Shown here one piece after another: positions 5,604 to 46,071 of a stretch of 64,000 nt of DNA (within the stretch, counting starts at the first letter, position 1; the number at the start of each line of letters is the position of its first letter). Source of the DNA: a virus (lineage: Duplodnaviria > Heunggongvirae > Uroviricota > Caudoviricetes); the IMG/VR virus record IMGVR_UViG_3300000571_000003, positions 21,812-85,811 of that record. One strand, given 5' to 3'. The position numbers and the translations under genes were made by a program. Under the pieces are notes generated by a model, which was not told the origin of the DNA, did no database searches, and was given only the letters and a program-made list of their open reading frames with translations.

Positions 5604-8600
5604 TTATTTTTTCTTAGATAATGTATTCGCCATAAAATCTAAATCCATTTGCGATGTTGGTAAACCTGCGGTTGAAAATCCGGTTCTCATTGTTCTTGAT
5701 GCAGGATGTTCTTTTCTCTTCATTCCTTGAACATCCTCTCCACGAACTGCTCTTGCAAGACCTCTAAATCTATAACTTGGAACAGTCTCTATCGCTGCCT
5801 CTGATAATGGTGTTAAACCTGCTATTGCACCAGCTACCGCCAGAGGACCTGACGGTGTCAGAGCCTCACCTAATTGCCTTAAAGCATATCCGCTCTTCTC
5901 TAACGGTGTAGCCGTGGCTGGATATATCGGAGTACCGAATGAGCTTTGCGGTTGTTCTCCCTGAAGCAACATCGGTTGTATAATATTATCAAATATAACC
6001 TGTCCAACAGGATCCTTTAATAATGGTGAAGAATCTACCATTGATGTCATTCTATCAGGAAATTGATCTGAATACTTCCTACCGTTTTCTGTAAACATAT
6101 TAAAAGACAAATATGGAATCATATTTGTTACATTCAGATACAAAGGATTTTCTCTTGAGAATGGTAACTTAACCATTCCTGTCTGACTAAAATTTGTATA
6201 ATATCCCTGAAGCATTGCTTCCTTTTCTAATGGAGTTTTAGGACCAGATATCTCACTCATTAAAAAGTTTATTTTATTAAATACCGCAGGATTATATAAT
6301 GCAGACTCTATAGTTTTCGCACCCATACCATAGGAGAATGATGCGAACGGTGAGCCTAATATTGGCAATGATCTAAGTATCTTTACTGCAGCAGGCATAG
6401 CTGCGTAATTCATATATATAATACTAGAAAATTCTAATGCCTTTTCTGGTTTTAATCTATAGAGATATCTTCCGCCGCTCTTATATTTTTCTTCAATATC
6501 AGTATATTTCATTGGAATAGCTCTTGATATCTTAAGAAGTTCTCCCTCACTAAATCCATTTGTAATGGCATGTACGAATAGACCGAGTTTGTGAGATTGA
6601 TCTATACGCTCATATCCAGAAACTCCTTTATTTATTATTGCATCTATAGCCTTAGCGGCAAGATTTGTATTTTGATTACTCTCAGCCCAATTTTTTATTT
6701 TCAAATAATATTCACTATTACCATACATCTCTGCAGAAAAAGATGTTGGAAGTTCTTCACTTGAAATTTTACCTTCTTTTAAATCTTTTCTATATTTCTG
6801 TAACGGAGTACTCTTCATCTCACCCTTTAATTGTTTTAATTTTTTTATAAGATCTACAGCATTCAATGTAACACCTACTTCTTCGGCATTTTTCTTAGCC
6901 ATTTGTAATATTGCATCATCACTAAAACTTCTTTCATTAAGTCCTATTACTTTACCAAAAGTATTTTCATGTTCTTTTATAAAATTAAGAATATATGATG
7001 AAGAAGGGTTATCAGGTGGAAAATATTTTTTCATGAAATTAGCACCATTTCCTGTTAGGAAATCCCATGAATCTTTAATGGCGCTAAAATAAGAACGGCG
7101 TGTTATATCAACTCCAGCAAGAAACGCCATAGTAGGATTTCCTACTGCCGCATTAACAATCGCAGATGGACTCAAGGCATTAACCTTTGCACCCTTAAAG
7201 AAATTTATAAATCCAGAATATGCATCCAATGTATTCTTAACCCATGGTGTACCATTTTTTGTTTTTATCTCATTAAGCATTTTTACCTTTTCGTCATACC
7301 ACTTCAAACCAGTCTTTTCAGTATCAAAGTCTTTTGCAGCCATCCGAGCCTCATCAGTAAGTATTTTTACGAGATCCCTTTGTACATATGTTTCATTAGC
7401 CTCACCAAGCATCCTTTGTGAATTAGTTAAAGCATCTTCAGACCGTGTTATAGAAGATGGAGACTTTGCCGCCAATATACTCTCATCAACCATTTCAGAA
7501 AGTTTTCTAGCAGGAGCCTCTTGTACTCTCTGACCAAGTGGTGTATCTGGCATCATATCAGACATCGATCTTACTGGCTTATAATCTCCATAAATACCTG
7601 TTACCTCATCAAAAGCTTTTTTTACCTCTTCTTCATTCGTTGATATAACTTCACCGGTTACAGGATCTCTTACTATTTCTAATTTAGGAATCTTTTTTTC
7701 TCTTAAATTCTTTAATTTATCCTTTAATATTGCCTGTCTAAACCATACACCGGGATTCATATCAAATGCCTTTAAAAGAGACTCCCCATAAGGCAATTCC
7801 TCAACTTTTTCTCTAACTATATCCCCAAGCGAAAGATATGCCTGTTTTGCCTTATTCCAACCAGCTGGTTCTAATGATGCACGCTCATCTAATATGCCTT
7901 TAAGACTATTTTTCATTATATTTTGGTATTCATCAGTAGAAGAAATCGATTTTTCCTGCATTTGAGCTATTTTTTCCTTAAATTTACTTAATCCTAGTGC
8001 TTTTCTCTGCTCATCTGTAAGATTTCCTAACTTTAACCCTTCTTTTTCAATGGCTTTAACCGCATCATCTATGCCTTTTTGCCCAGAACCCGTTAATATA
8101 CGTGAAATAGTCGATGCTTTACCTAAAAAACCACTCTCTGCGCCCTTTAAAGCCCCTTTTGAACCTCCTTTTATCAATCCAGCCCCTATTCTAGGTATTA
8201 AAGCGCCAGTTCCTGCAGTTGCCCAGTTTACAGGGTCAAATGTAACATCCAACATAAAGCCTAAAGGAGCTGAAACATAGCCAGGAGCACCTACTTTACG
8301 TAAAACATCACCAAAATTCTCCTTAACAGTGAGGTTTCTAGACACATTCTGCCAACCTGGTACGGATCCTGTACCTGTAAGAGCCTGTACACCACCTACG
8401 ATCCCATGTAATGGAGCTGAAAGAGCCCCTAAACCCTTTTCTAATAGACCTTCATGCCGTTTACCTCCTCTTTCCTCTGGAGCCTTACCTTTTCCATACC
8501 ACTCAGCCTGTTTAACCTGGCTCTCAAGTACATCTTTTTGATTCTGTAGTTTCCTAATATTTATTTCAGATAACAAATCAGACCGTGTAGGGTTCTCAGT

Positions 8601-8720
8601 GTTTGTATATGCGGTAGGAGATTCACTTAAAGCAACTTCACTATATCCAAGACTTTTATTCAAATCAGAAATACGCTGAGACATTTGTTCAGGCGTTAAT
8701 TTTTCTTTAGATGCTGGCAT
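5604..8720 (-). CDS. large hypothetical protein (1038 aa), possibly virion/internal protein
   Basis: Long uninterrupted ORF with Gly/Ala-rich N-terminal third (GAGLIKGGSKGALKGAESGFLGKAST); upstream of terminase genes in same operon; no recognised catalytic motif. Confidence 0.55.
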   Translation of the reverse strand: MPASKEKLTPEQMSQRISDLNKSLGYSEVALSESPTAYTNTENPTRSDLLSEINIRKLQNQKDVLESQVKQAEWYGKGKAPEERGGKRHEGLLEKGLGALSAPLHGIVGGVQALTGTGSVPGWQNVSRNLTVKENFGDVLRKVGAPGYVSAPLGFMLDVTFDPVNWATAGTGALIPRIGAGLIKGGSKGALKGAESGFLGKASTISRILTGSGQKGIDDAVKAIEKEGLKLGNLTDEQRKALGLSKFKEKIAQMQEKSISSTDEYQNIMKNSLKGILDERASLEPAGWNKAKQAYLSLGDIVREKVEELPYGESLLKAFDMNPGVWFRQAILKDKLKNLREKKIPKLEIVRDPVTGEVISTNEEEVKKAFDEVTGIYGDYKPVRSMSDMMPDTPLGQRVQEAPARKLSEMVDESILAAKSPSSITRSEDALTNSQRMLGEANETYVQRDLVKILTDEARMAAKDFDTEKTGLKWYDEKVKMLNEIKTKNGTPWVKNTLDAYSGFINFFKGAKVNALSPSAIVNAAVGNPTMAFLAGVDITRRSYFSAIKDSWDFLTGNGANFMKKYFPPDNPSSSYILNFIKEHENTFGKVIGLNERSFSDDAILQMAKKNAEEVGVTLNAVDLIKKLKQLKGEMKSTPLQKYRKDLKEGKISSEELPTSFSAEMYGNSEYYLKIKNWAESNQNTNLAAKAIDAIINKGVSGYERIDQSHKLGLFVHAITNGFSEGELLKISRAIPMKYTDIEEKYKSGGRYLYRLKPEKALEFSSIIYMNYAAMPAAVKILRSLPILGSPFASFSYGMGAKTIESALYNPAVFNKINFLMSEISGPKTPLEKEAMLQGYYTNFSQTGMVKLPFSRENPLYLNVTNMIPYLSFNMFTENGRKYSDQFPDRMTSMVDSSPLLKDPVGQVIFDNIIQPMLLQGEQPQSSFGTPIYPATATPLEKSGYALRQLGEALTPSGPLAVAGAIAGLTPLSEAAIETVPSYRFRGLARAVRGEDVQGMKRKEHPASRTMRTGFSTAGLPTSQMDLDFMANTLSKKK

Positions 8721-9188: not shown

Positions 9189-9503
9189 TTACATATTAAA
9201 ATATTTCTTTAACTTATAATCAACCATAAACTTAATTGTTTTTTTAGAAGATATTTTTCTCAAAGAACCGGTTTTAACATCCCTCATAACCCTACCTTTA
9301 TGAACAGTTATAACAAAATCACCAAAATTAGGGAGCCTCACAACACCAGTTCTTTTAAGTTCCTGCACTATAACTTTAACCATTGAATAAAAAACATCCT
9401 TCACCAATTGTTCTTTAATATAGTTACATCTGAAAGATACAAGCTGAAAGAACTGATCAGCTTTTATATGATCCATCTTACTTGGTTTATGACTCCGTGC
9501 CAT
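9189..9503 (-). CDS. HU/IHF-family (histone-like) DNA-binding protein
   Basis: GVVRLPNFGDFVITVHKGRVMRDVKTGSLRKISSKKTIKFMV matches the HU beta-arm pattern (GFGxF...R.GRNP.TG..I.I......F). Confidence 0.55.
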   Translation of the reverse strand: MARSHKPSKMDHIKADQFFQLVSFRCNYIKEQLVKDVFYSMVKVIVQELKRTGVVRLPNFGDFVITVHKGRVMRDVKTGSLRKISSKKTIKFMVDYKLKKYFNM

Positions 9504-12308: not shown

Positions 12309-14021
12309 ATGAGACCATTTCCTTTTACAATAGGAGCAGATCCTGAGCTAAACTTCATATCTCAAGGACGAAAGGTAGATGCATGTTATACCATGAGAAA
12401 TCTACTGAAGAATGATGAAAAATTTAGCACTAATAGAGGACTTGTTATTGATGGAGCAGGAGATATTGGATGGGATGGATGTACTTCAACTGGAGAGTTG
12501 CGTCCTAACCCATCTGTAAGTCCTAAGAAACTCACAGAAAATATCGGAACACTCTTTAAAGAATTCTACAATCGCATCAACCTCTTTGACATGAGTACAT
12601 TATCATTTCACTCATCAATTGGAGGTCATCTTCATTTTCTATTGCCGAGTACAAAACCTACAGATACAACCATACGAAAGTGGCATCGTATCATGGCATC
12701 ATTCTATCTTCCTATCATGATGGGAGAAAATAAGATTAATCTTGAACTGAGAGCAAAAGGAAATTATGGAAAAATCAGCGATTATCATGCGAACAATGAG
12801 TTCACTCAAGAAGATGGAAGCAAAATAAAAACATATGAGTTCCGTGTGCCATCAGCAGAATGGATCACTCATCCAAAAATTTGCGAATCAGTCATCGCAT
12901 ATATGGGAGTAGTGTGGAATGAGATTACAAATAATTCACGAAGCGTAAATAAACACAAAGAACTTATTTATAAAACAGAAAAACAAGGAGAAGCATTGCA
13001 ACAACTCTTGGTGTCAGAATACACCTCACTCACAAAGAACATCTTCAAAGATATTCAGAAAGCTATCAAAACATTTGAATATTATGAAGATTATAAAGAT
13101 CAGATAGAATATGTACTTGACATAGATCAAGTTATGAAAGATAAGAAGAAGGTAAATTATAATATAGTAGAAGGATGGAATCTTGCACCAACAAAGAAAA
13201 CTACGAAGAGAGATATATTAAGTACAAAGAAATTCACGGAAAAATCTCTTGAAAAAAATCTTGATGAGAAAAGCCGTCTTATTAACATAAGTTATAACTC
13301 AGATCCAAACTGTGAAATCTTTGCCAATACACTTGCACAACGTTCTGTTGCATTCAATTGGAAATTAAACAAAACATATTTCCTCTTTGGATTAAGAAAA
13401 GGAATCAATAAACTCATGTCATTCAATCTCAAAAGTATGCCAATCACGGGACAAGAGATTATAGAAACTTCAGAAGACTTTGAGGCTGTTTCACAACTAT
13501 ATAGAAAGATGATTGATAGATACAGTGCAAATAACAGAGGACGATCTCCTATACGATTTGATTTTAACACTGGAGAAATTATACAAGAGAAAGAGAATAC
13601 AATTCTCATTGGCATTCCATATGAGATGAGAATGAAACAAGAGACTAAAGATTTCATTGACCTCGTATATGATATTGAAACAGATTCTAAGAAACCAACT
13701 ATGTGGAGTCAGCATCCTACTGTAGATGATAATAATTTTCCAGAAGAACAGAAAGGAAAGTTTTGGAAAGTAATGAATGGCAAAACAGAAGAAGTTATCA
13801 TGGCAGAAAATACTGAAACAGCAGCAAAGAATGTAGCAGAACTTATAGAAGAAAGAATAGCATTGCAAAGAGAGGAGCAGGAAAATCCGCTTTATAAAAC
13901 ATGGCCAAACTCATACGATACCCATGAAAAATATATCGAAGGATACCGAGCTTATCTCAACAATGCCGCAATAGACCTTGGACTTATAACAAGACCCACA
14001 GAGGGAGAAGCAATATCTTAA
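12309..14021 (+). CDS. large protein with putative GS-like amidoligase N-terminal domain (inference)
   Basis: 570-aa ORF directly upstream of a class-II GATase; N-terminal motifs GELRPNP, GGHLHF and EFRVP are compatible with glutamine-synthetase-fold carboxylate-amine ligases (Amidoligase_2/GCS2-like) but cannot be confirmed by eye. Confidence 0.35.
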   Translation: MRPFPFTIGADPELNFISQGRKVDACYTMRNLLKNDEKFSTNRGLVIDGAGDIGWDGCTSTGELRPNPSVSPKKLTENIGTLFKEFYNRINLFDMSTLSFHSSIGGHLHFLLPSTKPTDTTIRKWHRIMASFYLPIMMGENKINLELRAKGNYGKISDYHANNEFTQEDGSKIKTYEFRVPSAEWITHPKICESVIAYMGVVWNEITNNSRSVNKHKELIYKTEKQGEALQQLLVSEYTSLTKNIFKDIQKAIKTFEYYEDYKDQIEYVLDIDQVMKDKKKVNYNIVEGWNLAPTKKTTKRDILSTKKFTEKSLEKNLDEKSRLINISYNSDPNCEIFANTLAQRSVAFNWKLNKTYFLFGLRKGINKLMSFNLKSMPITGQEIIETSEDFEAVSQLYRKMIDRYSANNRGRSPIRFDFNTGEIIQEKENTILIGIPYEMRMKQETKDFIDLVYDIETDSKKPTMWSQHPTVDDNNFPEEQKGKFWKVMNGKTEEVIMAENTETAAKNVAELIEERIALQREEQENPLYKTWPNSYDTHEKYIEGYRAYLNNAAIDLGLITRPTEGEAIS

Positions 14022-14041
14022 TAACATAACCATATACAAAT

Positions 14042-15160
14042 ATGTGTGGAATTATTTGTGCGATTTCTAAAGACAAGACACCCGTGAATGGTTTTGTTAT
14101 AGACCAGTTTGAGGATCAGCAGAGCAGAGGAATAAAAGGCTTTGGTATCATAGATATAGACATGGAGACAAAAGAATACAAAATAAGCAGAGCAACAGAG
14201 CCAGCTAAGTTTATGTTTGACCTTCATAAGAAAGAATCATCAGCAATGATAGTTCATCACAGATATCCAACCTCTAGTCCGAACTTCATGAGCCAGACTC
14301 ATCCTATCTCTGTAGACAACGGTTCTCTCAAACATAAATATCTTGTGATACATAACGGTTGCATCTCAAATGATAAAACTCTTAAGAAAGAACACGAAGA
14401 ACTTGGCTTCATATATACAACGGACATAGATATAGTAGACCAATGGAAGAGAGAGGAGCAGAAGTTCAACGATTCAGAATGTCTCTCAATTGAGGTAGCA
14501 CGGTTTATAGAGAAACAATCAGAAGAGGTAGGAATCCTTGGCTCAGCAGCTTTCATCGCAGTACAGATAGATAAAAAGACAGATAAAATACAGAACATCT
14601 TCTTTGGACGAAACACCAACCCTCTCCATATGAGCTTTACAAGAGGCAAGCTACGACTGTCATCAGAGGGAGAGGGAGATGATATTAAGCCTAATGTTCT
14701 TTATTCATGGGATATGAAGGCGACAAACCTCAAAAAGAGAGATATGAAGTTCAAGACTATAGCTCCTGCTACCTATCAAACATATCAGCATCAGACTGCC
14801 ATTGGCTTTCAAGACAAAGGAAATCTTACAACTCATACAAGGGAGAACGACTACGCATATCCATATAGAGATGAGTCATATTATAAAGATATGCCGTGGG
14901 AAGATAAGGTAGATGATGAGGAGATAGAACAGATAGTAGAGTTCAGACAGGAAGAAGCCCAAAAAGAACTTGAAGATTTCTTTGACTACATAGCAGATTC
15001 AGAGTTAGCAATTACTGCTGACATAGAAAACACACTAAAAGACATAAGATCTATACTTCTTATAGCTAAGAGTGAGGCTGTAAAAGCACATCAAGATAGA
15101 GAGATGAATGAGGAATTAGAAATAGAAAATTATAATAAATCATATTCTCAAAGTGTATGA
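14042..15160 (+). CDS. class-II (Ntn) glutamine amidotransferase-like protein with acidic C-terminal extension
   Basis: N-terminus MCGI (catalytic Cys2 of Gn_AT_II enzymes such as PurF/GlmS/AsnB), then SRG..GFGI, HHRYPTS, HNGCISN, TDIDIV blocks; C-terminal ~170 aa D/E-rich. Confidence 0.65.
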   Translation: MCGIICAISKDKTPVNGFVIDQFEDQQSRGIKGFGIIDIDMETKEYKISRATEPAKFMFDLHKKESSAMIVHHRYPTSSPNFMSQTHPISVDNGSLKHKYLVIHNGCISNDKTLKKEHEELGFIYTTDIDIVDQWKREEQKFNDSECLSIEVARFIEKQSEEVGILGSAAFIAVQIDKKTDKIQNIFFGRNTNPLHMSFTRGKLRLSSEGEGDDIKPNVLYSWDMKATNLKKRDMKFKTIAPATYQTYQHQTAIGFQDKGNLTTHTRENDYAYPYRDESYYKDMPWEDKVDDEEIEQIVEFRQEEAQKELEDFFDYIADSELAITADIENTLKDIRSILLIAKSEAVKAHQDREMNEELEIENYNKSYSQSV

Positions 15161-15511: not shown

Positions 15512-16003
15512 ATGCAAAACCTACAACAATATATGACTGGTTTAAGACTACCCCAATATCCACAGTACCCAACCTCCCAAGAGATCATGGAAAAGCCTAT
15601 AAAACACCGCCTAGAAGCTATAGAAGCAATCAGAGGATGGAAGATAACAGACTACCCAGGGTGGAAAGATAAAGCCACTGGAGAGAAACTTTTGGCTCTG
15701 TATAGGCTCATAACAAGCCTGTCTATCGTATATAATAAGCCTGTGTGCGTTACAAATGGACATGAATACCACTACTCACCGCTCTCATCCACCATCATAC
15801 TAGACTCCAGAAACCCTTCAATCATAAGCACTCTGCATGAATTTGCACACCATATCAAAGGACCAAGTGAATCAAAGGCATGTAAATGGTCTGTGTGGCT
15901 ATTTAAGAAGGTATTTCCGAAGGCATTTGCAAAGTTAGAGTTTATTCCTAACAGTCATATGCTATGCAAAAGAAAAGTAAAGATAACATCACAGACCTCC
16001 TAA
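15512..16003 (+). CDS. zincin-like metallopeptidase (HExxH; SprT/IrrE-like)
   Basis: HEFAHH motif preceded by a CVTNGHEYHY region typical of SprT-like/WLM zincins. Confidence 0.45.
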   Translation: MQNLQQYMTGLRLPQYPQYPTSQEIMEKPIKHRLEAIEAIRGWKITDYPGWKDKATGEKLLALYRLITSLSIVYNKPVCVTNGHEYHYSPLSSTIILDSRNPSIISTLHEFAHHIKGPSESKACKWSVWLFKKVFPKAFAKLEFIPNSHMLCKRKVKITSQTS

Positions 16004-16218
16004 ATAGAGAGGATGAGTTCATACTCCTTCAGATACCAGGAAGCAAATATATGCTTGTTTGTAAGGAAAATCCACCAAAGAAGTGGTCTATAGAGATGAT
16101 AAATCCAGAGACTAATGAACACAGAACCATATGCCATGAAGAAGATGGAGACATATTTAAGAGTTTACTGTTCAACATATGGTCAATGAATCCTACAATA
16201 AGATATAAAAGGAGATAA
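15964..16218 (+). CDS. hypothetical protein
   Basis: 84-aa ORF followed by terminator. Confidence 0.4.
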   Translation: MQKKSKDNITDLLNREDEFILLQIPGSKYMLVCKENPPKKWSIEMINPETNEHRTICHEEDGDIFKSLLFNIWSMNPTIRYKRR

Positions 16219-16221
16219 ATA

Positions 16222-16257
16222 AAAGCCTATAGTCTAAAAAACTATAGGCTTTTTTTA
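16222..16257 (+). terminator. intrinsic terminator ending plus-strand early block
   Basis: AAAGCCTATAG-loop-CTATAGGCTTT followed by TTTTTT. Confidence 0.65.
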
Positions 16258-16443
16258 TACCTATACACCGTCAACAGTCATTCGTATACAGTATTATCTG
16301 TCATTATATGATCTGTCATTTTAAGGAATACTTTACACTTTTTTCATTATAAATATAAGGATATATAGTAATATATAGTAGTATTTTGTTATAAACGGGT
16401 TTTGGACATTTCCAAAAATAGCTTCTTTTACACCCTACACTAA

Positions 16444-16549
16444 CACCGTGCACGGTGCCTCTACCCTCTACCCTCTACCCTCTACCCTCTACCCTCTACC
16501 CTCTACCCTCTACCCTCTACCCTCTATCCTCTATCCTCTATGAACTGCG
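16444..16549. repeat. 14-bp perfect palindrome CACCGTGCACGGTG followed by ~13 tandem copies of heptamer CTCTACC(/CTCTATC)
   Basis: Seen directly in the 660-bp non-coding convergent gap; track ORF 16455..16637 is merely the repeat translated (PLPSTLY x3). Confidence 0.85.
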
Positions 16550-16717
16550 CTCTATGAACCTCAAACTATCCACAATAAACAAACACTTGTTCTATAGCAC
16601 CATTCTACTATATAATAGAAAATGCCCAAAAATATAATGTTTTTTATTATTTGTCCCAAGCAAAAACTTTTTCTTGACACCCCATACACCCCATACATGG
16701 TAATATGATAAATTAAT

Positions 16718-16752
16718 AAAAAAACATCATGATATAAACAATGATGTTTTTT
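16718..16752. terminator. palindromic bidirectional terminator in convergent gap
   Basis: AAAAAAACATCAT-GATATAAACA-ATGATGTTTTTT, A-run and T-run on either side. Confidence 0.5.
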
Positions 16753-16879
16753 ATTATTTGATCCGATGAATGTATATTATTTCATAATACATAATATTTT
16801 CTCGGATGAACCAAGTAAGTCTACTCGGTTTAATATGGACTATGTCCATCTAAACTATACCACACTACATTACTTACAT

Positions 16880-17170
16880 CTAATCATCATCATCCTCATC
16901 ACTATACTCTTCCTCACTAGTATCCTCTGACATATCCCCTTCAAACTCCTTACTACCACCAGAAGAATATAAATCATCTACATCATCATTATTACTTTCA
17001 CCTTCAGGAACATTACTTAAATCATTACTAGTAAGCCCATTACCAATATCCTTACTGTCACTACCATCTATTTTCTCTTCACACTCCTCTAATACTTCCT
17101 CTACTTCCCCGCCTACCTCCTCCTCTTCCTCATCTTCCCCTACTTCTTCGTTTTTTTTATCCTCTGCCAT
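16880..17170 (-). CDS. highly acidic low-complexity protein (candidate DNA mimic)
   Basis: 96 aa, >45% D/E (EDEEEEEVGGEVEEVLEECEE ... SDEDDDD). Confidence 0.5.
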   Translation of the reverse strand: MAEDKKNEEVGEDEEEEEVGGEVEEVLEECEEKIDGSDSKDIGNGLTSNDLSNVPEGESNNDDVDDLYSSGGSKEFEGDMSEDTSEEEYSDEDDDD

Positions 17171-17253
17171 ATTTTTCTCATTATGACTTATACTTATACT
17201 TATATTAGAATTAGATTAATCATTCACTTTCATTCACTCACATTAGTGAATAA

Positions 17254-17778
17254 CTATGACGTGACACCTGTCACTTTAATCTCTCCATCAACCATATCAA
17301 TAATAGCATACAAACTACTTATACCAAGAAACTCAGGTACATCGCTTACTAGAACCTTATGAATATTCACCTCAACCTCTAACTCCAATAGCTTCTCATA
17401 CTCCTGCATACTCCTATCTCTCTCTTTCAATACCTCATCATACTCCTTCTTCAACTCCATAAATTCTTCTTCCGCCTTTTTCTCATCAACAAATACAAAT
17501 AACCCGTCACGCTGTACTGGATTACCACTCTCATCCTTCTCTGCGTTCTTTCTTCCTAACTCCAATGATTTCTTCTTAAAATTACCGTACTCAACGCTTT
17601 CTTCGCTCGCCTTCGATAACGCCTGTACCTCTGGCAACAATACTCTCAAATTCTTTGCTACCGCATACTTAAACTTAATACTCAATTGCTCTCCCTCCTT
17701 ATTAACATCTGGATTCTCCAATACATTCAATGTATTAAATAGTGCTAAAATATCTTTTCTTTTCATACATTCATACAT
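17254..17778 (-). CDS. hypothetical protein (coiled-coil, K/E-rich)
   Basis: 174-aa ORF. Confidence 0.5.
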   Translation of the reverse strand: MYECMKRKDILALFNTLNVLENPDVNKEGEQLSIKFKYAVAKNLRVLLPEVQALSKASEESVEYGNFKKKSLELGRKNAEKDESGNPVQRDGLFVFVDEKKAEEEFMELKKEYDEVLKERDRSMQEYEKLLELEVEVNIHKVLVSDVPEFLGISSLYAIIDMVDGEIKVTGVTS

Positions 17779-17790
17779 TACATTAAATAA

Positions 17791-18792
17791 TTATAAATCC
17801 CAAATATTATCATTTCCAAATGCCCCCCACTCTGATGTTTTCCTGTATATTGGCTTCTTCAAATCCAAAAACTCTATAATTCCTTTTGGTGTGAGGTCAT
17901 ATTTACCATCAGCTCTACCCAAAACATTATAAGTACTTAACGATTCATCTTCATACCTCAAAACTGCCACTGCCTGCAATGGCTCTTTCTTCCCTATCGC
18001 ATAAGCAAGATGCACCGTACATTCCTTTGCCTCATAAAACTTCAAATAATCCACCGCAAGCTTACGTGCCATATATGCTCCACTGCGATCTACTTTAGAG
18101 GCATCTTTTCCAGATTGACATCCGCCTCCCACCTGCACTCTAGGCCCATAGGCATCTACCACAATCTTTCTTCCTGTAAGCCCTGTGTCTGCGTCAAATC
18201 CCCCTATATCCCATTTTCCTGCAGGATTTACATACCTGTAGCAATCATCTGCTATTCTTTTCTTTAACAGCCATCCATCTACAATTCCCAATAATTCACT
18301 TGAAACTACTCCGCACCATGAAGCTACAACCGCAACTATTTCTCCTTTTTTATTCACTGTTACCTGTGTTTTTCCATCATTCTCATGTATCGCATAAATA
18401 TATCTACATAAATCTCTGGCGAACACATATTCCAACGGCATGAGCTCTGGAGTGTCATTACAGGCATAACCTACCATGATACCTTGATCTCCAGCACCCC
18501 CTGTGTCAACGCCAGAAGCTATCTCAGGGCTTTGACGTGATAAGTTGACTTGCACACCATATTTCTCTCCAACGACGCTGTGGACGAGCTGTGGCACGTC
18601 TACGTAAGCCTTAGTGGTGAGCTCACCTGTCACCGTGATGATGCCGTGTCCGCCCATTGTCTCAACAGCAACACGAGAATCTGGATCTTGTCTTAAGCAC
18701 TCATCAAGGATTGCATCAGATATTTGGTCACAAATTTTGTCCGGATGTGCGGGAGAACAAAATTCCGCTGTTCTTAGCATATATTTTTCCAT
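17791..18792 (-). CDS. metK: S-adenosylmethionine synthetase (MetK homolog, short form)
   Basis: Signature blocks AHPDKICDQISDAILD, GGAGDQGIMVGYA, DTGLTGRKIVVDAYG, GGGCQSGKDASKVDRSGAYMAR, YAIG, KPIYRKTSEWGAFG match bacterial MetK motifs (GHPDK, GAGDQG, GGGAFSGKD). Confidence 0.85.
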   Translation of the reverse strand: MEKYMLRTAEFCSPAHPDKICDQISDAILDECLRQDPDSRVAVETMGGHGIITVTGELTTKAYVDVPQLVHSVVGEKYGVQVNLSRQSPEIASGVDTGGAGDQGIMVGYACNDTPELMPLEYVFARDLCRYIYAIHENDGKTQVTVNKKGEIVAVVASWCGVVSSELLGIVDGWLLKKRIADDCYRYVNPAGKWDIGGFDADTGLTGRKIVVDAYGPRVQVGGGCQSGKDASKVDRSGAYMARKLAVDYLKFYEAKECTVHLAYAIGKKEPLQAVAVLRYEDESLSTYNVLGRADGKYDLTPKGIIEFLDLKKPIYRKTSEWGAFGNDNIWDL

Positions 18793-19340
18793 TTAGTTTT
18801 AATAATTTTTCCTATTTCCTTCATCTCTTCAAATGTAAATATATTACTTTTGAAGGTATTGCAGAGACCGCAAGCCAATACTATATTGTTAATTTCATAA
18901 AAGAAATCACCGTTCATCCTATCTATCGTTAGTCTCTTGCCGTGCTTTCCATCATTCATTAATGAGACTTTTTCCTCTGGTACTCCACAATACACACATA
19001 TTTTTTCTTGAGCTTTATACCATAAGACAAACTCATCTCTAGATATAATAACATTTTTAACTCCACGCTTTATTAGACCCCGGTAAACCCCCCTGGGTGA
19101 TGCCGAGTATTTTTGTCTTATCTGCTTTCTCCTTACAGAATTTTTTGCAGTCCATTCTCTATTATACTTCGCATACTTTTCCTTATTATTTTTTCTATTT
19201 TTTACAGAAGCAGAATAGCAACACTCCCTACAAACAGTAGCAATACCATCCGTATTCTTTCTTGGATTCTTATAGACCCTAGAGGTCTTATAAAATTCCG
19301 TATTTTCTTTTTCTTTTAAACATTTTGTGCAAGTTCTCAT
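18774..19340 (-). CDS. HNH homing-endonuclease-like protein
   Basis: LTIDRMNGDFFYEINNIVLACGLCNTFK HNH core plus N-terminal Cys cluster. Confidence 0.5.
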   Translation of the reverse strand: MRTCTKCLKEKENTEFYKTSRVYKNPRKNTDGIATVCRECCYSASVKNRKNNKEKYAKYNREWTAKNSVRRKQIRQKYSASPRGVYRGLIKRGVKNVIISRDEFVLWYKAQEKICVYCGVPEEKVSLMNDGKHGKRLTIDRMNGDFFYEINNIVLACGLCNTFKSNIFTFEEMKEIGKIIKTKWKNIC

Positions 19341-19372
19341 ATATTATATTATACAAGAACAGACAAATTGTG

Positions 19373-19612
19373 TCAAATCTTCTCCCTTGGTAAAAACTCA
19401 TTCAATATCGCTATGTTCTCCTCCGTATGCTTCAGATTCCGAACGAACTTCCCGCACTTCGCACAATACGCCTGAATATGAAACGTGTAGAGCGGGACGA
19501 AGCTGTTTTGTTCGTGCAACCTCCGCATATTCTCACTCGTGAAGAACTTCACCTTTATGGCAAAGTCATTCATGCCTTCAGCGTCTCGGTAGTGGCAGGT
19601 ATCACATGTCAT
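19373..19612 (-). CDS. small Cys-containing hypothetical protein
   Basis: 79-aa ORF, CDTCH ... CAKCGK. Confidence 0.35.
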   Translation of the reverse strand: MTCDTCHYRDAEGMNDFAIKVKFFTSENMRRLHEQNSFVPLYTFHIQAYCAKCGKFVRNLKHTEENIAILNEFLPREKI

Positions 19613-19783
19613 AGGCTTTTACTCCTCGATAATAAAAGTTTTGTTATAGCCGAAGTAAAAAACATTCTACAGCTTCCACACTGACTGCGCCCATGGCCTT
19701 GCGACATAATACTTTTATGTTGGCATCTTTCAAAAATACCTCCCCTTTTTAGATCCTCTATGGTTATTTTTTTAAACATATTT

Positions 19784-20104
19784 TTATAAGTCCTTATTAT
19801 TATTATTTAATATTTCCCATAGGTCGTCGTAATCTTTCAATGGAATCTCCTTCCCATTCTTTGACGTTATCGTTCCCTTCTTCCACTTCTCGCCCCAATC
19901 AAGTTCCCACAAATAATAACCAATCCAATCACTATCATCATTCACCGCATCTTTCAATAAATCAACTACCATTTCTGTATATTTATCTATATGAAATCCT
20001 CCAAAATCAGTTGAAAACTTCTTTAAAGCAATATCAACCTCTTTCTCCGCATCTAATAGTTCCCTTAAATCTTTTAATGTCTTTATAAACAATTCTTTTT
20101 TCAT
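19784..20104 (-). CDS. hypothetical protein
   Basis: 106-aa ORF, stop/start overlap with neighbour. Confidence 0.45.
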   Translation of the reverse strand: MKKELFIKTLKDLRELLDAEKEVDIALKKFSTDFGGFHIDKYTEMVVDLLKDAVNDDSDWIGYYLWELDWGEKWKKGTITSKNGKEIPLKDYDDLWEILNNNNKDL

Positions 20105-20316
20105 ATATTAAATAATTTTTCTATTTTATTTACAAGCCACTTATAATTCATTCCACAGTTTTTGCAAAGAGGAACACCATTCACTTCTTCTAAATCCTCC
20201 TGAATACCTAATAAATAATCCTTTAACATAGCCCATGTCCAAAGAGATTCTTTATGACATTCACACATGCACCCTATTAATATGCAATCCTGATCACATA
20301 TCCTGCAAATGCCCAT
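20101..20316 (-). CDS. small Cys-rich protein
   Basis: CRICDQDCILIGCMCECH, CKNCG. Confidence 0.4.
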   Translation of the reverse strand: MGICRICDQDCILIGCMCECHKESLWTWAMLKDYLLGIQEDLEEVNGVPLCKNCGMNYKWLVNKIEKLFNI

Positions 20317-20322
20317 AGTAAT

Positions 20323-20517
20323 TTATTCCTCAATTATTATAAAAACGTCTTCAGACCACACTTCTTCAAACTTACCGTCTCTCTCTATCAAATACTTCTT
20401 TCCCTTAACATAATCACAATAGCCGTCTGGGAATTTTCCTTCTGTTGCCCCTATTATTGAAACAAGTTCATATTTATCCTCTCCGTCTTTTTTTACTCTT
20501 AGATATCCTTTCTTCAT
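20323..20517 (-). CDS. hypothetical protein
   Basis: 64-aa ORF. Confidence 0.4.
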   Translation of the reverse strand: MKKGYLRVKKDGEDKYELVSIIGATEGKFPDGYCDYVKGKKYLIERDGKFEEVWSEDVFIIIEE

Positions 20518-20699
20518 AAATTAATCATTGTATGGATTATCTTTAACCGTCTTTTTTATTCTACTAACTCTTTTATTCCCAAGAAAATTCTCAAATCTTT
20601 TCTTTATCTTATCACAAACTAAACAACCTTCTTGAAAATTCTCTAACGCAAGCTCATATATATGATCTGCATCATAAATAGATAAAGATATTCTCATGG

Positions 20700-21008
20700 C
20701 TATTTACCTTTATTCTTTATTTTTCCCTTTTTCTTTATCTCCTTCTTTTTCTTCTTTAAATCAACAACAAGTTCTTCCTCCTTTTTCTTCTCATCTCCAA
20801 CCTTTACTTCTTCACGCTCACTACTAGCCAATACAACACCAAAATTAAGGCTATTAAAGTCATAATTAAACCCTATAACACCATATTTATCCTGACACTG
20901 AAGTAAAAACGCTCTGAAACTCTCATCAATCCTATAAAATGCCGTTCCATCAGTCTTTATATACTTCGCAGGTATTGTAATATCAATGGCTATTAATTCT
21001 TTTTCCAT
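20700..21008 (-). CDS. hypothetical protein with Lys-rich tail
   Basis: C-terminus KKKKKEIKKKGKIKNKGK. Confidence 0.45.
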   Translation of the reverse strand: MEKELIAIDITIPAKYIKTDGTAFYRIDESFRAFLLQCQDKYGVIGFNYDFNSLNFGVVLASSEREEVKVGDEKKKEEELVVDLKKKKKEIKKKGKIKNKGK

Positions 21009-21017
21009 ATATTTTAT

Positions 21018-21230
21018 TTATTCTATCTTATGTCCTTTTTTAGAAAATGTTATATTTAAATTATCTTCTTTAAATTTATCATACGTTTCACCAAAATACT
21101 CTGCAACTTCAGTAAGAAGAATTTTCATAGCCTCACGTTCATCATCGTCGTATATAACGCTCTTAGTATTACCTTCACTGTGTTTTTGAAGAATAAAACC
21201 ATTATCACAAGACTCTATTGTTAATTTCAT
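21018..21230 (-). CDS. hypothetical protein
   Basis: 70-aa ORF. Confidence 0.45.
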   Translation of the reverse strand: MKLTIESCDNGFILQKHSEGNTKSVIYDDDEREAMKILLTEVAEYFGETYDKFKEDNLNITFSKKGHKIE

Positions 21231-21234
21231 ATAT

Positions 21235-21645
21235 TTATTTATAAAAATTTTTTATCCAATCAATAAATGATTCTTTTGTTAATTCAACATCATTATATAC
21301 TCCTTTTGTATCACCTCTTGTATCACCTCCTACTCCACCTACTTCTGAAAGCTTTCTACTTAAATCACTATTCTTTTTATTTTCCTCTTTTATTTTTATC
21401 TCCTCTTCTTGTTTTCTCTTATTCTCAATTATTTTTTTATTTAATTTATCTTCAAGATCTGCTAATGATATACCGACTTTCATATAAAATAAAACCCTAT
21501 CGCAAATAAATTTTTCATGAGCATAATATCTGACAACAAAATTAGAATTACTCAAACCATTATTAACTAACCGTATATCAATACCGTTGTCTCTATGTAA
21601 TCTTCTTACAATCTTTTCATATTTTTCTAATTCATATATGTTCAT
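21235..21645 (-). CDS. hypothetical protein
   Basis: 136-aa ORF overlapping helicase stop. Confidence 0.5.
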   Translation of the reverse strand: MNIYELEKYEKIVRRLHRDNGIDIRLVNNGLSNSNFVVRYYAHEKFICDRVLFYMKVGISLADLEDKLNKKIIENKRKQEEEIKIKEENKKNSDLSRKLSEVGGVGGDTRGDTKGVYNDVELTKESFIDWIKNFYK

Positions 21646-24407: not shown

Positions 24408-24410
24408 AAT

Positions 24411-24635
24411 TTATAATATTTCTAATATATCTTTTATCTTTTTTCCTTCTTTCTTAAATGCAATTATTTTCTTAATATCCTTCAATGCCTCTGACCTTTT
24501 AAAGACCTTCATCTTACCAACAAGGTATTCTGGATTTAATAATCCCTGATTACAATAATAATTGAGCATGCTTTTATTTATGCCCAATTCTATCGCAAGA
24601 TCACCTAATGACGCTACGTCTTCACCTTTTTTCAT
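24411..24635 (-). CDS. MerR-like HTH DNA-binding protein
   Basis: LGDLAIELGINKSMLNYYCNQGLL helix-turn-helix; first gene after promoter copy 2. Confidence 0.45.
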   Translation of the reverse strand: MKKGEDVASLGDLAIELGINKSMLNYYCNQGLLNPEYLVGKMKVFKRSEALKDIKKIIAFKKEGKKIKDILEIL

Positions 24636-24681
24636 ACTCCATTAATTAATGTTTAAAAAAAGTATATCGCTATCTTTAAAT

Positions 24682-24710
24682 AGTATAGCATATTTATCAT
24701 CACTTGTCAA
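24682..24710 (-). promoter_or_regulatory. sigma70-type promoter (family copy 2) driving minus operon 24635->16880
   Basis: Minus strand aCTTGACAAGTgatgataaatATGCTATACTatt: TTGACA-17-TATACT. Confidence 0.6.
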
Positions 24711-24794
24711 GTATAATTATTGCCATATCATTTATTATTTAAATATATATGGTATAATATAGAATATAATATATTTATTTATTCTAAATAACAT

Positions 24795-25076
24795 ATGGAA
24801 AAAAAATTATTCTCCACAAGAGACATATATTTAGCATCAACACTTATAACACTTAAATTTTACATGATTAACATAGACTATCAGATCGAAGGTGATAGAA
24901 ACAGACCAGTAGGATACTTCAGTTTTGAAGAAACAGCTATATTAAAGGATGCATGCCAGAAATACCTACAAGGCTTACTTTCAGTTGAACCAAAGGCTTT
25001 TGTGACAAATCTACATAGTTTAAAATCAACAATTACCAATGTTTATCATAATCCAAACAATATTACAGAGAAATAG
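24795..25076 (+). CDS. hypothetical protein
   Basis: 93-aa ORF divergent from MerR-like gene. Confidence 0.4.
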   Translation: MEKKLFSTRDIYLASTLITLKFYMINIDYQIEGDRNRPVGYFSFEETAILKDACQKYLQGLLSVEPKAFVTNLHSLKSTITNVYHNPNNITEK

Positions 25077-25079
25077 AGC

Positions 25080-25108
25080 TTGACAAGTATTCAAAAATAT
25101 GCTATACT
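25080..25108 (+). promoter_or_regulatory. sigma70-type promoter (family copy 3)
   Basis: cTTGACAagtattcaaaaatatgcTATACTga, 17-nt spacer. Confidence 0.65.
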
Positions 25109-25117
25109 GATTTCAAG

Positions 25118-25247
25118 ATGAACTTTTCAATAAAATATCGATAGAACCGTATACATAATATGGTTTATGGGTGTGTTGCGGCACCTTAAGATGACTCTCT
25201 TAAAGAGTATACGGCGCAACCCGTATACTCTTTCAGAGAGTTTTTTT
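25118..25247 (+). ncRNA. candidate ~130-nt small RNA or leader/attenuator bracketed by promoter and terminator
   Basis: No ORF >9 codons between promoter copy 3 and a 20-bp-stem terminator; contains GTTGCGGCACC that can alternatively pair with GGCGCAAC in the terminator loop region. Confidence 0.3.
25195..25247 (+). terminator. strong intrinsic terminator
   Basis: CTCTCTTAAAGAGTATACGG-CGCAAC-CCGTATACTCTTTCAGAGAG (20-bp stem, 1 mismatch) followed by TTTTTTT. Confidence 0.7.
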
Positions 25248-25272
25248 ATATAAATTATCTTATTAAATATAT

Positions 25273-43377: not shown

Positions 43378-45457
43378 AATTGAAAATTTCCTTTCTCATG
43401 AAAGTAGTGAGTTGTCTTTTAGAGAAGATGAAAAGCTACTTATAGGGGGGCGGTCTGGAACGGGAAAATCGACGATATGTGAGGCAATACTTTTCGCTCT
43501 TTATGGTAAGGGGAGAGTGGATAACCGGAATATCATTAGAAAAGGAGCCAAAAACGCCTCTGTAGAGCTCACATTGAAGGAAGATGACCTTTGCTACAAA
43601 ATAGAGAGAAAGACCTCTGAAAAAGGCAAACAGACCCTGAATATGGTGCTCCTCAACGATGATTTAAGTGAAGAAGTTATCAAGGTAGAGGGTTTAAAGG
43701 AAAAACAAGACTGGATTGAGAAAACACTCATAAAATCGTCATATACTCTCTTCACGAACTCTATTCTGTATCTTCAAGATAATGTTGATACGTTTGTAAA
43801 ACAGACAGCCTCAAAACGCAAAGATCTTCTTCTTGAGATTGCCAATATTGAAGACTATGAAATGTATTACAATAGAGCAAAAGAAGAACTGAAATTGGCA
43901 ACAGAAGAACGTGTTAGGATTGAAACATTAACCAATGAGAAAAAAAGAATAATAGATTTTAATATAAATCCATTGAACACCATTGAGGATCTTGAGAAAA
44001 AAGAAACAGATATAAAAGATTCCATTAAGACATTGAACCTTCAATTAGAAAATGCAAGAGCTAACAGTGAGAAACAAAAAGAAACACAGAGAGATATTGT
44101 AATATTAGAATCAACATTATCTAATTTAAAGAGACAAGAAGAATCATATTTTTCTAATATCAAAATAAAAGAATCAAGCATAGAATTTCTTAAGAAGGTT
44201 GATGTAAATGCAATACAAGAAGGTCTGAAAAAACTCAAGGATTCAAAAGAAAAACTTCTTATAGTAGAAAAGAAGGAGAAGGAAGATATAGAGCATAATG
44301 ACAAAATACGTTATCTCATTGCACAGAAGCCATCAGAATATGATTATGAGGTAGATATAACATCATTGAATAAACAGCTTATTTCTATAATGACAAGTAA
44401 GGATAATTACTGTGAATATTTAAAAAGTAATTGTCCGAAACTTCAAGAACGATCGAAGGGTCAGATATCATATATTGAAGATCAGATAAAAGATAAGCAA
44501 GAGAAATTTACATTTCAGATTGCAGCAACAGAAGCGTATATTGCAAGACTGAATGCCCTTGGATTACAGAGAGTCATAGATAATGGAGCGCAGATTCTCA
44601 GAGAAGAAATAAAAATCCTTGAACATTGGGAAAGGGATAGTATACAGAACTCTTACGCTGAAGAAAAAGTAAAAGATTTTATAAAAGAGATAGAAGAAAT
44701 AAAAGAAAAAATAAAAGAAATAAAAAATAATCTAACAGATAGAAATATTGAGATATTAATTTTGAAAAAAGCTCTTGCAGAGAATAACGTTGACTGGGTT
44801 AAGGTTGAACAGACAACTAATAATCTACTGATAGGAAAACAGTCATCACTTATGACTGTCACACAGGAACTCACACTCGCAAGATATGCAAAGAAAATTG
44901 TTGAAGATACTGAAAAGGAACTTATACTATTAAAAGAAAAGCTTTCTGATATCTTAAACAAAATAGATCTTCTTGAAATAGTAAAAGAAGCATTCAGTTC
45001 TAAAGGTATAAAGACATTGGTAATAGATCATATCGTACCGCTTCTTGAGACAAAGATTAATGAGATCCTCAGTCAACTGTCTGATTTTCGTATACGTCTT
45101 GATACACAGAGGCAGAGTGCTGATGGAGAGAGTATGGTAGAAGGTTTATTTATTAATATTAATAACGACATTGGTGAGGAGCATGATTTCGACGCATTCT
45201 CTGGTGGGGAGCGTGTTAAGATAACGGTAGCTATATCAGAGGCACTGGCATCATTACAGAAGTGTAGTTTTAGAGTGTTAGACGAGGCGATCCAGGCGCT
45301 TGACGAAGAATCTACAGAATCATTTATTGATGTATTGAACCAACTAAAAGATAGGTTTAAACAAATAATTTGCATTAGTCATATTCAACAAGTTAAAGAC
45401 ACGTTCGACGATAGTATTGAGGTAATAAAAGAAAATGGTATAAGTAGAATTATATGA
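43355..45457 (+). CDS. sbcC: SbcC/Rad50-family SMC-like ATPase
   Basis: N-terminal Walker A GGRSGTGKST, long coiled-coil middle, C-terminal signature FSGGERVKITVAISEAL and Walker B FRVLDEA. Confidence 0.8.
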   Translation: MITLKNLKIENFLSHESSELSFREDEKLLIGGRSGTGKSTICEAILFALYGKGRVDNRNIIRKGAKNASVELTLKEDDLCYKIERKTSEKGKQTLNMVLLNDDLSEEVIKVEGLKEKQDWIEKTLIKSSYTLFTNSILYLQDNVDTFVKQTASKRKDLLLEIANIEDYEMYYNRAKEELKLATEERVRIETLTNEKKRIIDFNINPLNTIEDLEKKETDIKDSIKTLNLQLENARANSEKQKETQRDIVILESTLSNLKRQEESYFSNIKIKESSIEFLKKVDVNAIQEGLKKLKDSKEKLLIVEKKEKEDIEHNDKIRYLIAQKPSEYDYEVDITSLNKQLISIMTSKDNYCEYLKSNCPKLQERSKGQISYIEDQIKDKQEKFTFQIAATEAYIARLNALGLQRVIDNGAQILREEIKILEHWERDSIQNSYAEEKVKDFIKEIEEIKEKIKEIKNNLTDRNIEILILKKALAENNVDWVKVEQTTNNLLIGKQSSLMTVTQELTLARYAKKIVEDTEKELILLKEKLSDILNKIDLLEIVKEAFSSKGIKTLVIDHIVPLLETKINEILSQLSDFRIRLDTQRQSADGESMVEGLFININNDIGEEHDFDAFSGGERVKITVAISEALASLQKCSFRVLDEAIQALDEESTESFIDVLNQLKDRFKQIICISHIQQVKDTFDDSIEVIKENGISRII

Positions 45458-46071
45458 AAAAAATTTCTCTGAATTTAGGATGTGGCATAGGTTTTGTAAA
45501 GAATTTTATTAATGTAGACAATTTCATTGATGAGAAAAAGACAAGAAAAAAAACGGGTGAATACGTTGATTCAGAAATAGGAGAAAATGCAATCTTTGTT
45601 AAGGGTGATATGAGAGCATTACCATTTAAAGATAACTATGCTGATTATATAGAGTCTGTAGATGCCATAGAGCACATATCACACATTGATATAGGTAAAG
45701 TATTTAGTGAAATGTATCGTGTTCTGAAACCAGGTGGTGAGCTTGTTCTCTTTACTACAGACTTTGATGAGCTTGCACGTTTGTGGAGTGGATATATAGC
45801 TGATAAACCATTTGATTTTGAGAAATATCACGATCTAATGGAAGTTATTTATGGGAACCAACATCATGATGGGGAATATCATAAAATACCTTTTAATAAA
45901 GATTTTCTTTCAAAGTGTCTCATTGTAGTTGGATTTAAAGCTGAAGATATAAAGATGATTATATATCCTACCAACTGTGCAACGTGGCCACCCCTTAAGA
46001 CATGGCCAAAAAAGAAAGATCAGGTAATACGAACTCAAATGATTTATGTGTCAGTTAAGAAGCAAAAATAA
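45454..46071 (+). CDS. class I SAM-dependent methyltransferase (Methyltransf_11-like)
   Basis: LNLGCGIG (motif I), GDMRALPFKDNYADYIES (post-I/II), LKPGGELVL (motif III); lacks DPPY/NPPY of DNA amino-MTases. Confidence 0.65.
   Translation: MKKISLNLGCGIGFVKNFINVDNFIDEKKTRKKTGEYVDSEIGENAIFVKGDMRALPFKDNYADYIESVDAIEHISHIDIGKVFSEMYRVLKPGGELVLFTTDFDELARLWSGYIADKPFDFEKYHDLMEVIYGNQHHDGEYHKIPFNKDFLSKCLIVVGFKAEDIKMIIYPTNCATWPPLKTWPKKKDQVIRTQMIYVSVKKQK

Follow-up and report, generated by a model that had tools for sequence, protein, structure and literature searches.

A gene on the minus strand of the 64,000-nucleotide stretch of phage DNA analyzed here (hereafter, the window) encodes a genuine and apparently working S-adenosylmethionine (SAM) synthetase (MetK/MAT; EC 2.5.1.6) of a short form, which is about 50 residues shorter than bacterial MetK. 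As judged from sequence comparisons, this short form is common to housekeeping MetKs of Patescibacteria (CPR) and to many uncultured phages. On balance, we consider it probable that the protein is a catalytically competent minimal SAM synthetase keeping SAM levels high for phage-directed methylation, with a class I methyltransferase encoded elsewhere in the window as the probable consumer. The gene is located as follows:

17791..18792, minus strand: short-form S-adenosylmethionine synthetase (MetK/MAT), a 333-aa ATG-initiated ORF with three MetK Pfam domains

The presence of a phage-encoded MetK of 333 aa at this position, as proposed earlier from the letters of the DNA alone (hereafter, the sequence-only reading), is confirmed by concordant matches to Pfam, PHROG and solved MAT structures. 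The ORF matches the Pfam domains S-AdoMet_synt_N (3e-24), _M (2.7e-15), and _C (8.9e-40) in that order, with 85.9, 57.0, and 136.3 bits, all above the respective gathering cutoffs of 33.1 (PF00438), 29 (PF02772), and 25 (PF02773). It also aligns to profile positions 1-340 of 346 of phrog_1569 (9.6e-96), which is labeled “unknown function” in PHROG, and matches 45 distinct solved MAT sequences in the PDB (best match 7r3b, 4e-64). The central domain aligns to just positions 3-61 of 120 of its Pfam profile, due to loops that are deleted relative to Escherichia coli MetK. Such loop deletions also explain why the score against the TIGR01034 metK profile (287.5 bits, E = 1.4e-85, profile positions 2-362 of 377) lies just under the equivalog cutoff of 309.4 bits. 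This cutoff is an annotation threshold; a score below it bars the automatic naming of the protein as an equivalog and is no argument against MAT chemistry. Homologs of the protein begin at the position of its Met5, and the public gene call comprises 329 aa. Accordingly, the real start codon is probably that of Met5 at 18780, which would give a protein of 329 aa.

The window protein was aligned with E. coli MetK (sequence identical to PDB entry 7ll3; mature E. coli numbering). All 14 residues compared, which we take from the MetK literature to be catalytic or ligand-binding, are kept in the window protein, namely His14, Asp16, Glu42, Glu55, Gln98, Asp118, Asp163, Lys165, Asp238, Arg244, Lys245, Lys265, Lys269, and Asp271. 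The same 14 positions are invariant across 173 short MetKs with ~48-78% identity to the window protein, which argues for purifying selection on catalysis. The adenine-stacking Phe230 of E. coli is replaced by Trp. The two MetK signatures of PROSITE are GAGDQGx3GY and G-[GA]-G-[ASC]-F-S-x-K-[DE]. Of the full set of signature blocks claimed by the sequence-only reading, motif 1 is indeed present as GAGDQGIMVGY, whereas motif 2 deviates at Q226 and reads GGGCQSGKD instead of the usual GGGAFSGKD. At this position, 170 of the 173 short MetKs contain an aromatic residue (F in 153, Y in 17), and a glutamine is found in the MetK of this phage alone. The location of Q226 in the triphosphate loop GGGAFSGKD might imply that the activity of the enzyme is lowered.

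The AlphaFold model of the protein (51 homologs; pLDDT 84.9, pTM 0.86) has the three-domain MAT fold, and a Foldseek comparison with MATs in the PDB yielded E-values of ~1e-32 and query-normalised TM-scores of 0.81-0.90. Absent in comparison to E. coli MetK are residues 74-86, 111-115, 156-163, and 193-203 as well as the C-terminal 14 residues. No solved MAT shorter than 377 aa was among the PDB matches, and the literature search retrieved neither an enzyme assay of any short-form MetK nor a paper on the short MetK of CPR bacteria. In its sequence, the window MetK looks catalytically intact.

Protein searches revealed hundreds of proteins of 316-335 aa with 57-78% identity to the window MetK. 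Leaving aside this phage's own contigs, the best uncultured matches show 76-78% identity, and the best match in a cultured phage 45%. In GTDB (one genome per species), the closest named relatives, with 50-57% identity, belong to the Patescibacteria, including Saccharibacteria, Gracilibacteria, and Peribacteria, and canonical MetKs of 378-400 aa rank after them with 38-44% identity. The short MetK of Candidatus Doudnabacteria (P0071) is ~60% identical to the window protein and is the sole MetK seen at its locus, next to genes for a Mur ligase, SecA, and polyamine-related proteins (arginine/ornithine decarboxylase, deoxyhypusine-synthase-like, and agmatinase/arginase-family genes). In Doudnabacteria, the short MetK thus appears to be a housekeeping enzyme, and its occurrence as the only MetK of the locus suggests that the short form is enzymatically functional. 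Identical gaps were found in the aligned sequences of the window MetK, P0071, P0005, P0038, P0058, P0010, and P0022, the last two of which sit in phage-like contexts. In a neighbor-joining tree calculated without bootstrap support, the short MetKs (~310-345 aa, lacking the same loops of canonical MetK) group in one clade that includes the window protein, in which Patescibacteria and viral sequences interleave, and which adjoins a clade of streptococcal-phage proteins of 347-392 aa. The rarity of SAM synthesis in phages that the sequence-only reading had implied is not supported by these searches. IMG/VR contains 445 stretches with MetK relatives, with the short form present in 53 of the best 79 loci, and MetK homologs occur in 154 GenBank phage records, 96 of them from Streptococcus (pro)phages and annotated as SAM synthetase (42-45% identity). 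In line with this, viral metK has been described as an abundant auxiliary metabolic gene (AMG; 10.1101/2021.01.05.425418).

In the window, MetK occupies the second position in a compact gene unit running leftward, in and around which the following features were found:

18774..19340, minus strand: endonuclease VII/HNH-like nuclease of 188 aa, matching phrog_1035 (2.8e-19) and several HNH PHROGs; its 3′ end overlaps the MetK start
19348..19376, minus strand: putative promoter, a sigma-70-type match TTGACA-17-TATAAT (12/12 in a consensus scan) just upstream of the nuclease-MetK pair
17254..17778, minus strand: 174-aa protein, 12 nt downstream of MetK
16880..17170, minus strand: 96-aa hyper-acidic protein, last gene of the unit
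16221..16253, no strand assigned: hairpin with a 15-bp stem flanked by an A-run and a T-run (terminator scan), at the junction of converging operons

The 188-aa protein is probably a free-standing homing-type nuclease, with D-R in its sequence where canonical HNH nucleases have D-H. In two viral loci with otherwise unrelated contexts, L089 and L007, MetK is immediately preceded by a homolog of it (48 and 43% identity). This conserved pairing amid unrelated genes suggests that nuclease and MetK may travel together as a cassette. The candidate promoter is the sole 12/12 match within 16000-25500, and the total of promoter-like sites in this region is not above shuffled expectation. The 174-aa protein is probably co-transcribed with MetK; it has no notable Pfam or PHROG match and no homolog adjoining MetK in other loci. 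Profile scans assigned no family to the 96-aa hyper-acidic protein either, and a role as, e.g., a DNA mimic would be speculation. The hairpin likely acts as a bidirectional terminator. Neither a SAM riboswitch nor any other family was detected in an Rfam scan of the window, which also contains no tRNAs. Base composition was considered as an indicator of recent horizontal transfer of MetK (GC content of 0.43 vs. 0.34 for the window) and dropped, since the GC3 of 0.35 is inside the range of the neighboring genes and therefore not informative.

Several genes identify the window as phage DNA, namely those for an intein-bearing large terminase, an SU10-type adaptor, an M23 peptidase, and a tail protein. 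Further window genes encode an intein-bearing SNF2 helicase, a primase-helicase, SbcC/SbcD-like proteins, RecA, and RuvC. The same sequence is present on metagenomic contigs of 87.4-89.5 kb, and the window corresponds to positions 21665..85664 of an 87,436-bp record, which to the left of the window additionally encodes an SU10/P22-type portal, several LAGLIDADG proteins, and an SU10-type capsid protein (MCP). Homing elements abound in the genome: besides the two inteins mentioned above (terminase and SNF2 helicase), it has several LAGLIDADG genes as well as HNH_3 genes. Near-identical DNA was not found among 50,697 phage records, and the portal shows just 23-26% identity to portals of N4-like phages; the phage thus belongs to an uncultured, deeply divergent lineage with a genome of ~88 kb. 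With regard to its host, the nearest named relatives of MetK are from Patescibacteria, a related phage contig was binned as Dojkabacteria, and the nearest named cellular relatives of RecA are from Clostridia (51-54%). As these clues disagree, they do not settle on one host.

The genomic neighborhoods of 79 viral MetK genes (53 short-type, 26 long-type) were compared with those of 69 cellular ones, with flanks of up to 8 kb on each side. For this, ORFs were called in all fetched loci and clustered by all-against-all BLASTP. The gene families recurring next to viral MetK on the same strand encode ParB-fused N6/N4 DNA methyltransferases (36 of the 79 loci), Dcm-type C5 methyltransferases (17/79), NAD-dependent epimerases/dehydratases (12/79), adenine phosphoribosyltransferase (APRT; 11/79, typically directly adjacent), MTA/SAH nucleosidase (MtnN; 10/79), and QueF-like proteins (10/79). 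A DNA methyltransferase gene is present in 21 of the 26 long-type and in 18 of the 53 short-type viral loci, and 29 of the latter contain a DNA methyltransferase, MtnN, or APRT, compared with 21 of the 26 long-type loci. None of the 69 cellular loci contains any of these three families. The presence of SAM-consuming and SAM-recycling neighbors in viral loci and their absence from cellular ones suggest that phage MetK usually belongs to a module for methylation and SAM recycling. This linkage is not seen in the window phage within the ~73 kb examined of its ~87-kb genome, which contain no gene for a DNA methyltransferase, MtnN, APRT, QueF, or other SAM enzyme apart from the class I methyltransferase described below. 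Searches by tblastn with representatives of DNA methyltransferases, Dcm, MtnN, APRT, and QueF had no hit with E < 1 in either the window or L168, and when the main window ORFs of at least 90 aa that do not overlap were scanned against Pfam and PHROG, this methyltransferase emerged as the only SAM-dependent enzyme. It is listed here together with two further genes that the sequence-only reading had named:

45454..46071, plus strand: class I SAM-dependent methyltransferase (Methyltransf_11/25) of 205 aa (Pfam 1.8e-12, 48.2 bits vs. a cutoff of 21.2)
12309..14021, opposite strand to MetK: phiEco32-type amidoligase (COOH-NH2_lig, 3.4e-11)
14042..15160, opposite strand to MetK: weak GATase match (GATase_6, 23.1 bits, below the cutoff of 27)

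The methyltransferase and the amidoligase thus proved to be real, with the GATase match being weaker. The translation of the methyltransferase gene contains motif I (LNLGCGIG) and an acidic motif II (INVD), and its AlphaFold model has a pLDDT of 96.3. Fold matches in the PDB are generic class I methyltransferases acting on small molecules or tRNA (TM ~0.5-0.6), with no DNA methyltransferase among the listed ones; given this generic character, no substrate was called from the fold. The protein lies outside the DNA methyltransferase families and is the sole recognizable SAM consumer in the window. Its family comprises 233 homologs at E <= 1e-5 (~40-55% identity among the 120 listed); records of cultured phages gave no match to it. 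Three related contigs of 78-102 kb, one of them with an SU10-type portal, carry the gene as well and, among them, share genes for RecA, SbcCD-type proteins, Band_7, primase-helicase, and amidoligase with the window phage. On one of these contigs, L171, the methyltransferase gene follows genes for an NAD-dependent epimerase and a glycosyltransferase.

As to whether MetK supplies this enzyme, the two genes are 27 kb apart and on opposite strands in the window, and no MetK was found within 10 kb of the methyltransferase gene in the three related contigs. On another related viral contig (L096), MetK is followed by a homolog of the methyltransferase (45% identity, E = 2e-44), an HU-like gene, and a gene for a 1063-aa protein, the latter two being homologs of window genes 9189..9503 and 5604..8720 (1038 aa). 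On L134, two weaker paralogs of the methyltransferase (28-29% identity) are encoded 2.4-3.7 kb from MetK. The adjacency on L096 lends real but limited, and thus partial, support to MetK feeding the methyltransferase. The sequence-only reading had suggested that the phage boosts the SAM supply for its own modification chemistry, in which it included the amidoligase/GATase genes. The first part of this suggestion gains from L096, whereas the second finds no backing, as these genes are encoded on the strand opposite to MetK, within a converging operon, and are absent from its recurrent neighbors. They appear to be a lineage trait.

All these observations are consistent with the following scenario. 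The short MetK would probably be transcribed together with the upstream EndoVII/HNH-like nuclease gene from a strong host-type promoter of its own, as part of a leftward block in which replication genes are located as well. During infection, it would produce SAM from methionine and ATP and thereby keep up the methyl-donor supply for phage-directed methylation. The most likely consumer of this SAM would be the lineage-conserved class I methyltransferase encoded at 45454..46071.

The pairing of MetK with a nuclease gene raises the question of whether it is mainly the passenger of a selfish element, i.e., whether gene conversion by the homing nuclease drags MetK and its promoter between phages with little specific benefit to them. 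That the two genes directly adjoin each other in the window, in L089, and in L007, whose surroundings otherwise differ, and that the cassette apparently has its own consensus promoter would fit this explanation, as would the abundance of homing elements (inteins, LAGLIDADG genes, and HNH_3 genes) in this genome and the interleaving of viral and Patescibacteria MetKs in the tree, which suggests frequent transfer. However, the pairing is restricted to three of the 54 short-type loci (53 viral ones and the window), with most phage MetKs lacking such a nuclease next to them, and the D-R motif makes nuclease activity uncertain. Moreover, catalytic residues that are invariant across the clade point to selection for enzyme function rather than mere hitchhiking, and we regard a passenger role as unlikely. 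Much the same holds for the possibility that MetK serves counter-defense or host manipulation, be it by sustaining SAM against depletion, by driving host DNA methyltransferases on phage DNA, or by feeding polyamine synthesis for packaging. With no phage DNA methyltransferase in the sequence examined, a protection of the DNA would need host enzymes, and the short MetK of Doudnabacteria adjoins polyamine-related genes. BREX and type I restriction are known to be influenced by the SAM level (10.1101/2023.02.27.530186), and a prophage metK changes aggregation and biofilm formation of S. agalactiae (PMC8223999). Nevertheless, no speD, speE, or other polyamine genes are among the window ORFs scanned, and known SAM-dependent defenses are evaded through the destruction of SAM and not through its synthesis. 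To our knowledge, no defense system works by depleting SAM, which is a further argument against such a role. An interference with SAM-sensing host defenses, offered as an alternative by the sequence-only reading, is not supported, since nothing that was found bears on it. We consider counter-defense or host manipulation improbable.

Since the active sites of MATs lie at the dimer interface, the short MetK could also be imagined as a decoy that assembles with host MetK into inactive mixed oligomers and thereby lowers SAM, reaching the outcome of T3 SAM lyase by another route. The exchange at Q226 in the triphosphate loop, which is specific to this protein, might be seen in this light, as might the report that T3 SAMase inhibits MetK in addition to cleaving SAM (10.1101/2023.02.27.530186). 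However, the window protein has kept all catalytic residues, which do not vary within the clade, and Patescibacteria appear to use this short form for housekeeping. Furthermore, the co-occurrence of phage MetKs with SAM consumers and SAH-recycling genes is sensible only if SAM is produced. A decoy function is thus highly improbable, and the supply of SAM by a competent enzyme remains the explanation that we favor. A more far-reaching version of it, which we consider quite unlikely in its entirety, would be that the short MetK, its EndoVII/HNH-like partner, and the promoter constitute a mobile SAM-supply cassette exchanged between CPR bacteria and their phages. The ~88-kb podovirus-like phage would then be a phage of CPR bacteria, its MetK a minimal MAT devoid of loops that are possibly part of the tetramer interface, and the SAM produced would feed a lineage-specific class I methyltransferase modifying a glycan or nucleotide instead of carrying out the usual DNA-base modification.

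When a phage controls the methyl-donor pool, this has consequences for DNA modification, the evasion of restriction, and the physiology of the host. In this context, the MetK described here is a divergent addition to a known class of viral auxiliary metabolic genes. Three leads arise from the analysis: a short MetK clade common to CPR bacteria and phages, the PHROG of which still lacks a functional label; the possibility that MetK travels paired with a nuclease gene; and a class I methyltransferase family that is absent from cultured phages and linked to MetK in a relative. The Q226 substitution is a further point of modest interest. Unless followed up experimentally, the three leads leave the current understanding unchanged.

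Published viral metK genes and the cases from Lake Baikal and S. agalactiae demonstrate that this class of gene is already known. Viral metK genes keep their substrate-binding motifs, have a dN/dS below 1, are transcribed in Lake Mendota metatranscriptomes, and co-occur with dcm (Kieft et al., 10.1101/2021.01.05.425418), and the Lake Baikal phage VP_139 encodes a MAT along with MtnN and three methyltransferases (PMC7678222). Like these AMGs, the window MetK is a phage-encoded MAT that has kept its substrate-binding motifs and is under purifying selection (10.1101/2021.01.05.425418; PMC7678222). They are, however, often located beside dcm or other methyltransferase genes and MtnN, whereas the window phage has no DNA methyltransferase, MtnN, or APRT in ~73 kb, and its MetK is instead paired with an EndoVII/HNH-like nuclease gene. 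The MetKs of Streptococcus prophages (Javan phages; 12/111phiA) are similarly shortened and share 42-45% identity with the window protein, and in 12/111phiA, as in the window, an endonuclease gene adjoins metK; the shortened gene of this S. agalactiae prophage is the one that alters aggregation and biofilm formation (PMC8223999). In contrast to the window protein, which is shorter and groups with the short clade of Patescibacteria and phages, they comprise 347-392 aa, form a separate clade, and belong to temperate phages, with DNA methyltransferases present at 21 of 26 such loci.

Among cellular enzymes, the housekeeping MetKs of Patescibacteria (e.g., P0071 of Doudnabacteria) are similar in length (~316-337 aa), share the same loop deletions, and are 50-57% (named genomes) or ~60% (P0071) identical to the window MetK. 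They differ in their surroundings, which in Doudnabacteria consist of housekeeping and polyamine genes, whereas the window gene lies behind a nuclease gene in a phage. With canonical MATs such as E. coli MetK and human MAT2A, the window protein has the three-domain fold (query-normalised TM-score 0.81-0.90) and the catalytic residues in common. In comparison to E. coli MetK, its identity is ~41%, several loops and the C-terminal 14 residues are missing, and it scores under the TIGR01034 cutoff. The SAM lyase (SAMase) of phage T3 is comparable in that it, too, is phage-encoded and targets the SAM pool of the host at an early stage of infection. It belongs to an unrelated protein family and has the opposite effect, as SAM is destroyed and MetK reportedly inhibited.

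The protein encoded by the S-adenosylmethionine synthetase (MetK) gene (17791-18792, minus strand) has phrog_1569 as its best PHROG match (9.6e-96), a family carrying the database label 'unknown function'. This family is clearly the short MetK family, and the label constitutes an annotation gap, by which PHROG-based phage annotation would miss such metK genes. Signature 2 of the phage protein reads GGGCQSGKD, with Gln at residue 226; this residue is Phe or Tyr in 170 of the 173 short MetKs compared, and Gln was found there only in this phage.

Further features on either side of the gene are:
16458-16540: tandem repeat CCTCTAC, 7-nt unit, 11.9 copies, 98% matches
16880-17170, minus strand: 96-aa protein, mostly Asp and Glu, final gene of the MetK transcription unit
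30012-30350, plus strand: 112-aa ORF, near-threshold DUF1599 match

No family match was obtained for the 96-aa protein, which might conceivably be a DNA-mimic anti-restriction protein. The repeat sits within the ~660-nt non-coding gap separating the converging operons, close to a bidirectional hairpin with a 15-bp stem (16221-16253). The 112-aa ORF scored 23.9 bits against DUF1599 ('nucleotide modification associated domain 1'), under the cutoff of 25; four viral loci (L094, L095, L099, and L102) have a homolog of this ORF at a distance of 1-2 kb upstream of MetK.

Four very large ORFs gave no match in Pfam or PHROG:
5604-8720, minus strand: 1038-aa ORF
47309-52357, minus strand: 1682-aa ORF
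52359-54590, minus strand: 743-aa ORF
55191-57992, minus strand: 933-aa ORF

A homolog of the 1038-aa protein (29% identity) is encoded by the related viral contig L096, directly downstream of MetK, methyltransferase and HU-like genes, in that order.

Homing elements are unusually abundant in this phage genome, and the tail-fibre-related gene is a compositional outlier:
1144-3918 and 21642-24407, minus strand: intein-bearing large terminase and SNF2 helicase genes, from domain matches
58033-59958, minus strand: tail-fibre-related gene (phrog_863)

The terminase is split by an intein with Intein_splicing and LAGLIDADG_3 matches, the helicase by one matching Intein_splicing (residues 233-581). 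Additionally, immediately outside the left edge of the window, 4-5 free-standing LAGLIDADG genes are grouped next to the SU10-type capsid gene (17422-21641 of L168, the adjoining stretch of the same genome). The GC content of the tail-fibre-related gene is 0.46 versus 0.34 for the window, its GC3 just 0.20; this deviation possibly stems from amino-acid bias or from a recently swapped-in receptor-binding module.

Two genes were found again in the related 78-102 kb contigs, which carry homologs of the methyltransferase:
31589-32431, plus strand: SPFH/Band_7 protein
37750-38781, plus strand: RecA, full bacterial type (5.3e-103)

The closest named cellular relatives of the phage RecA are from Clostridia (51-54%), an affinity at odds with that of MetK to Patescibacteria.
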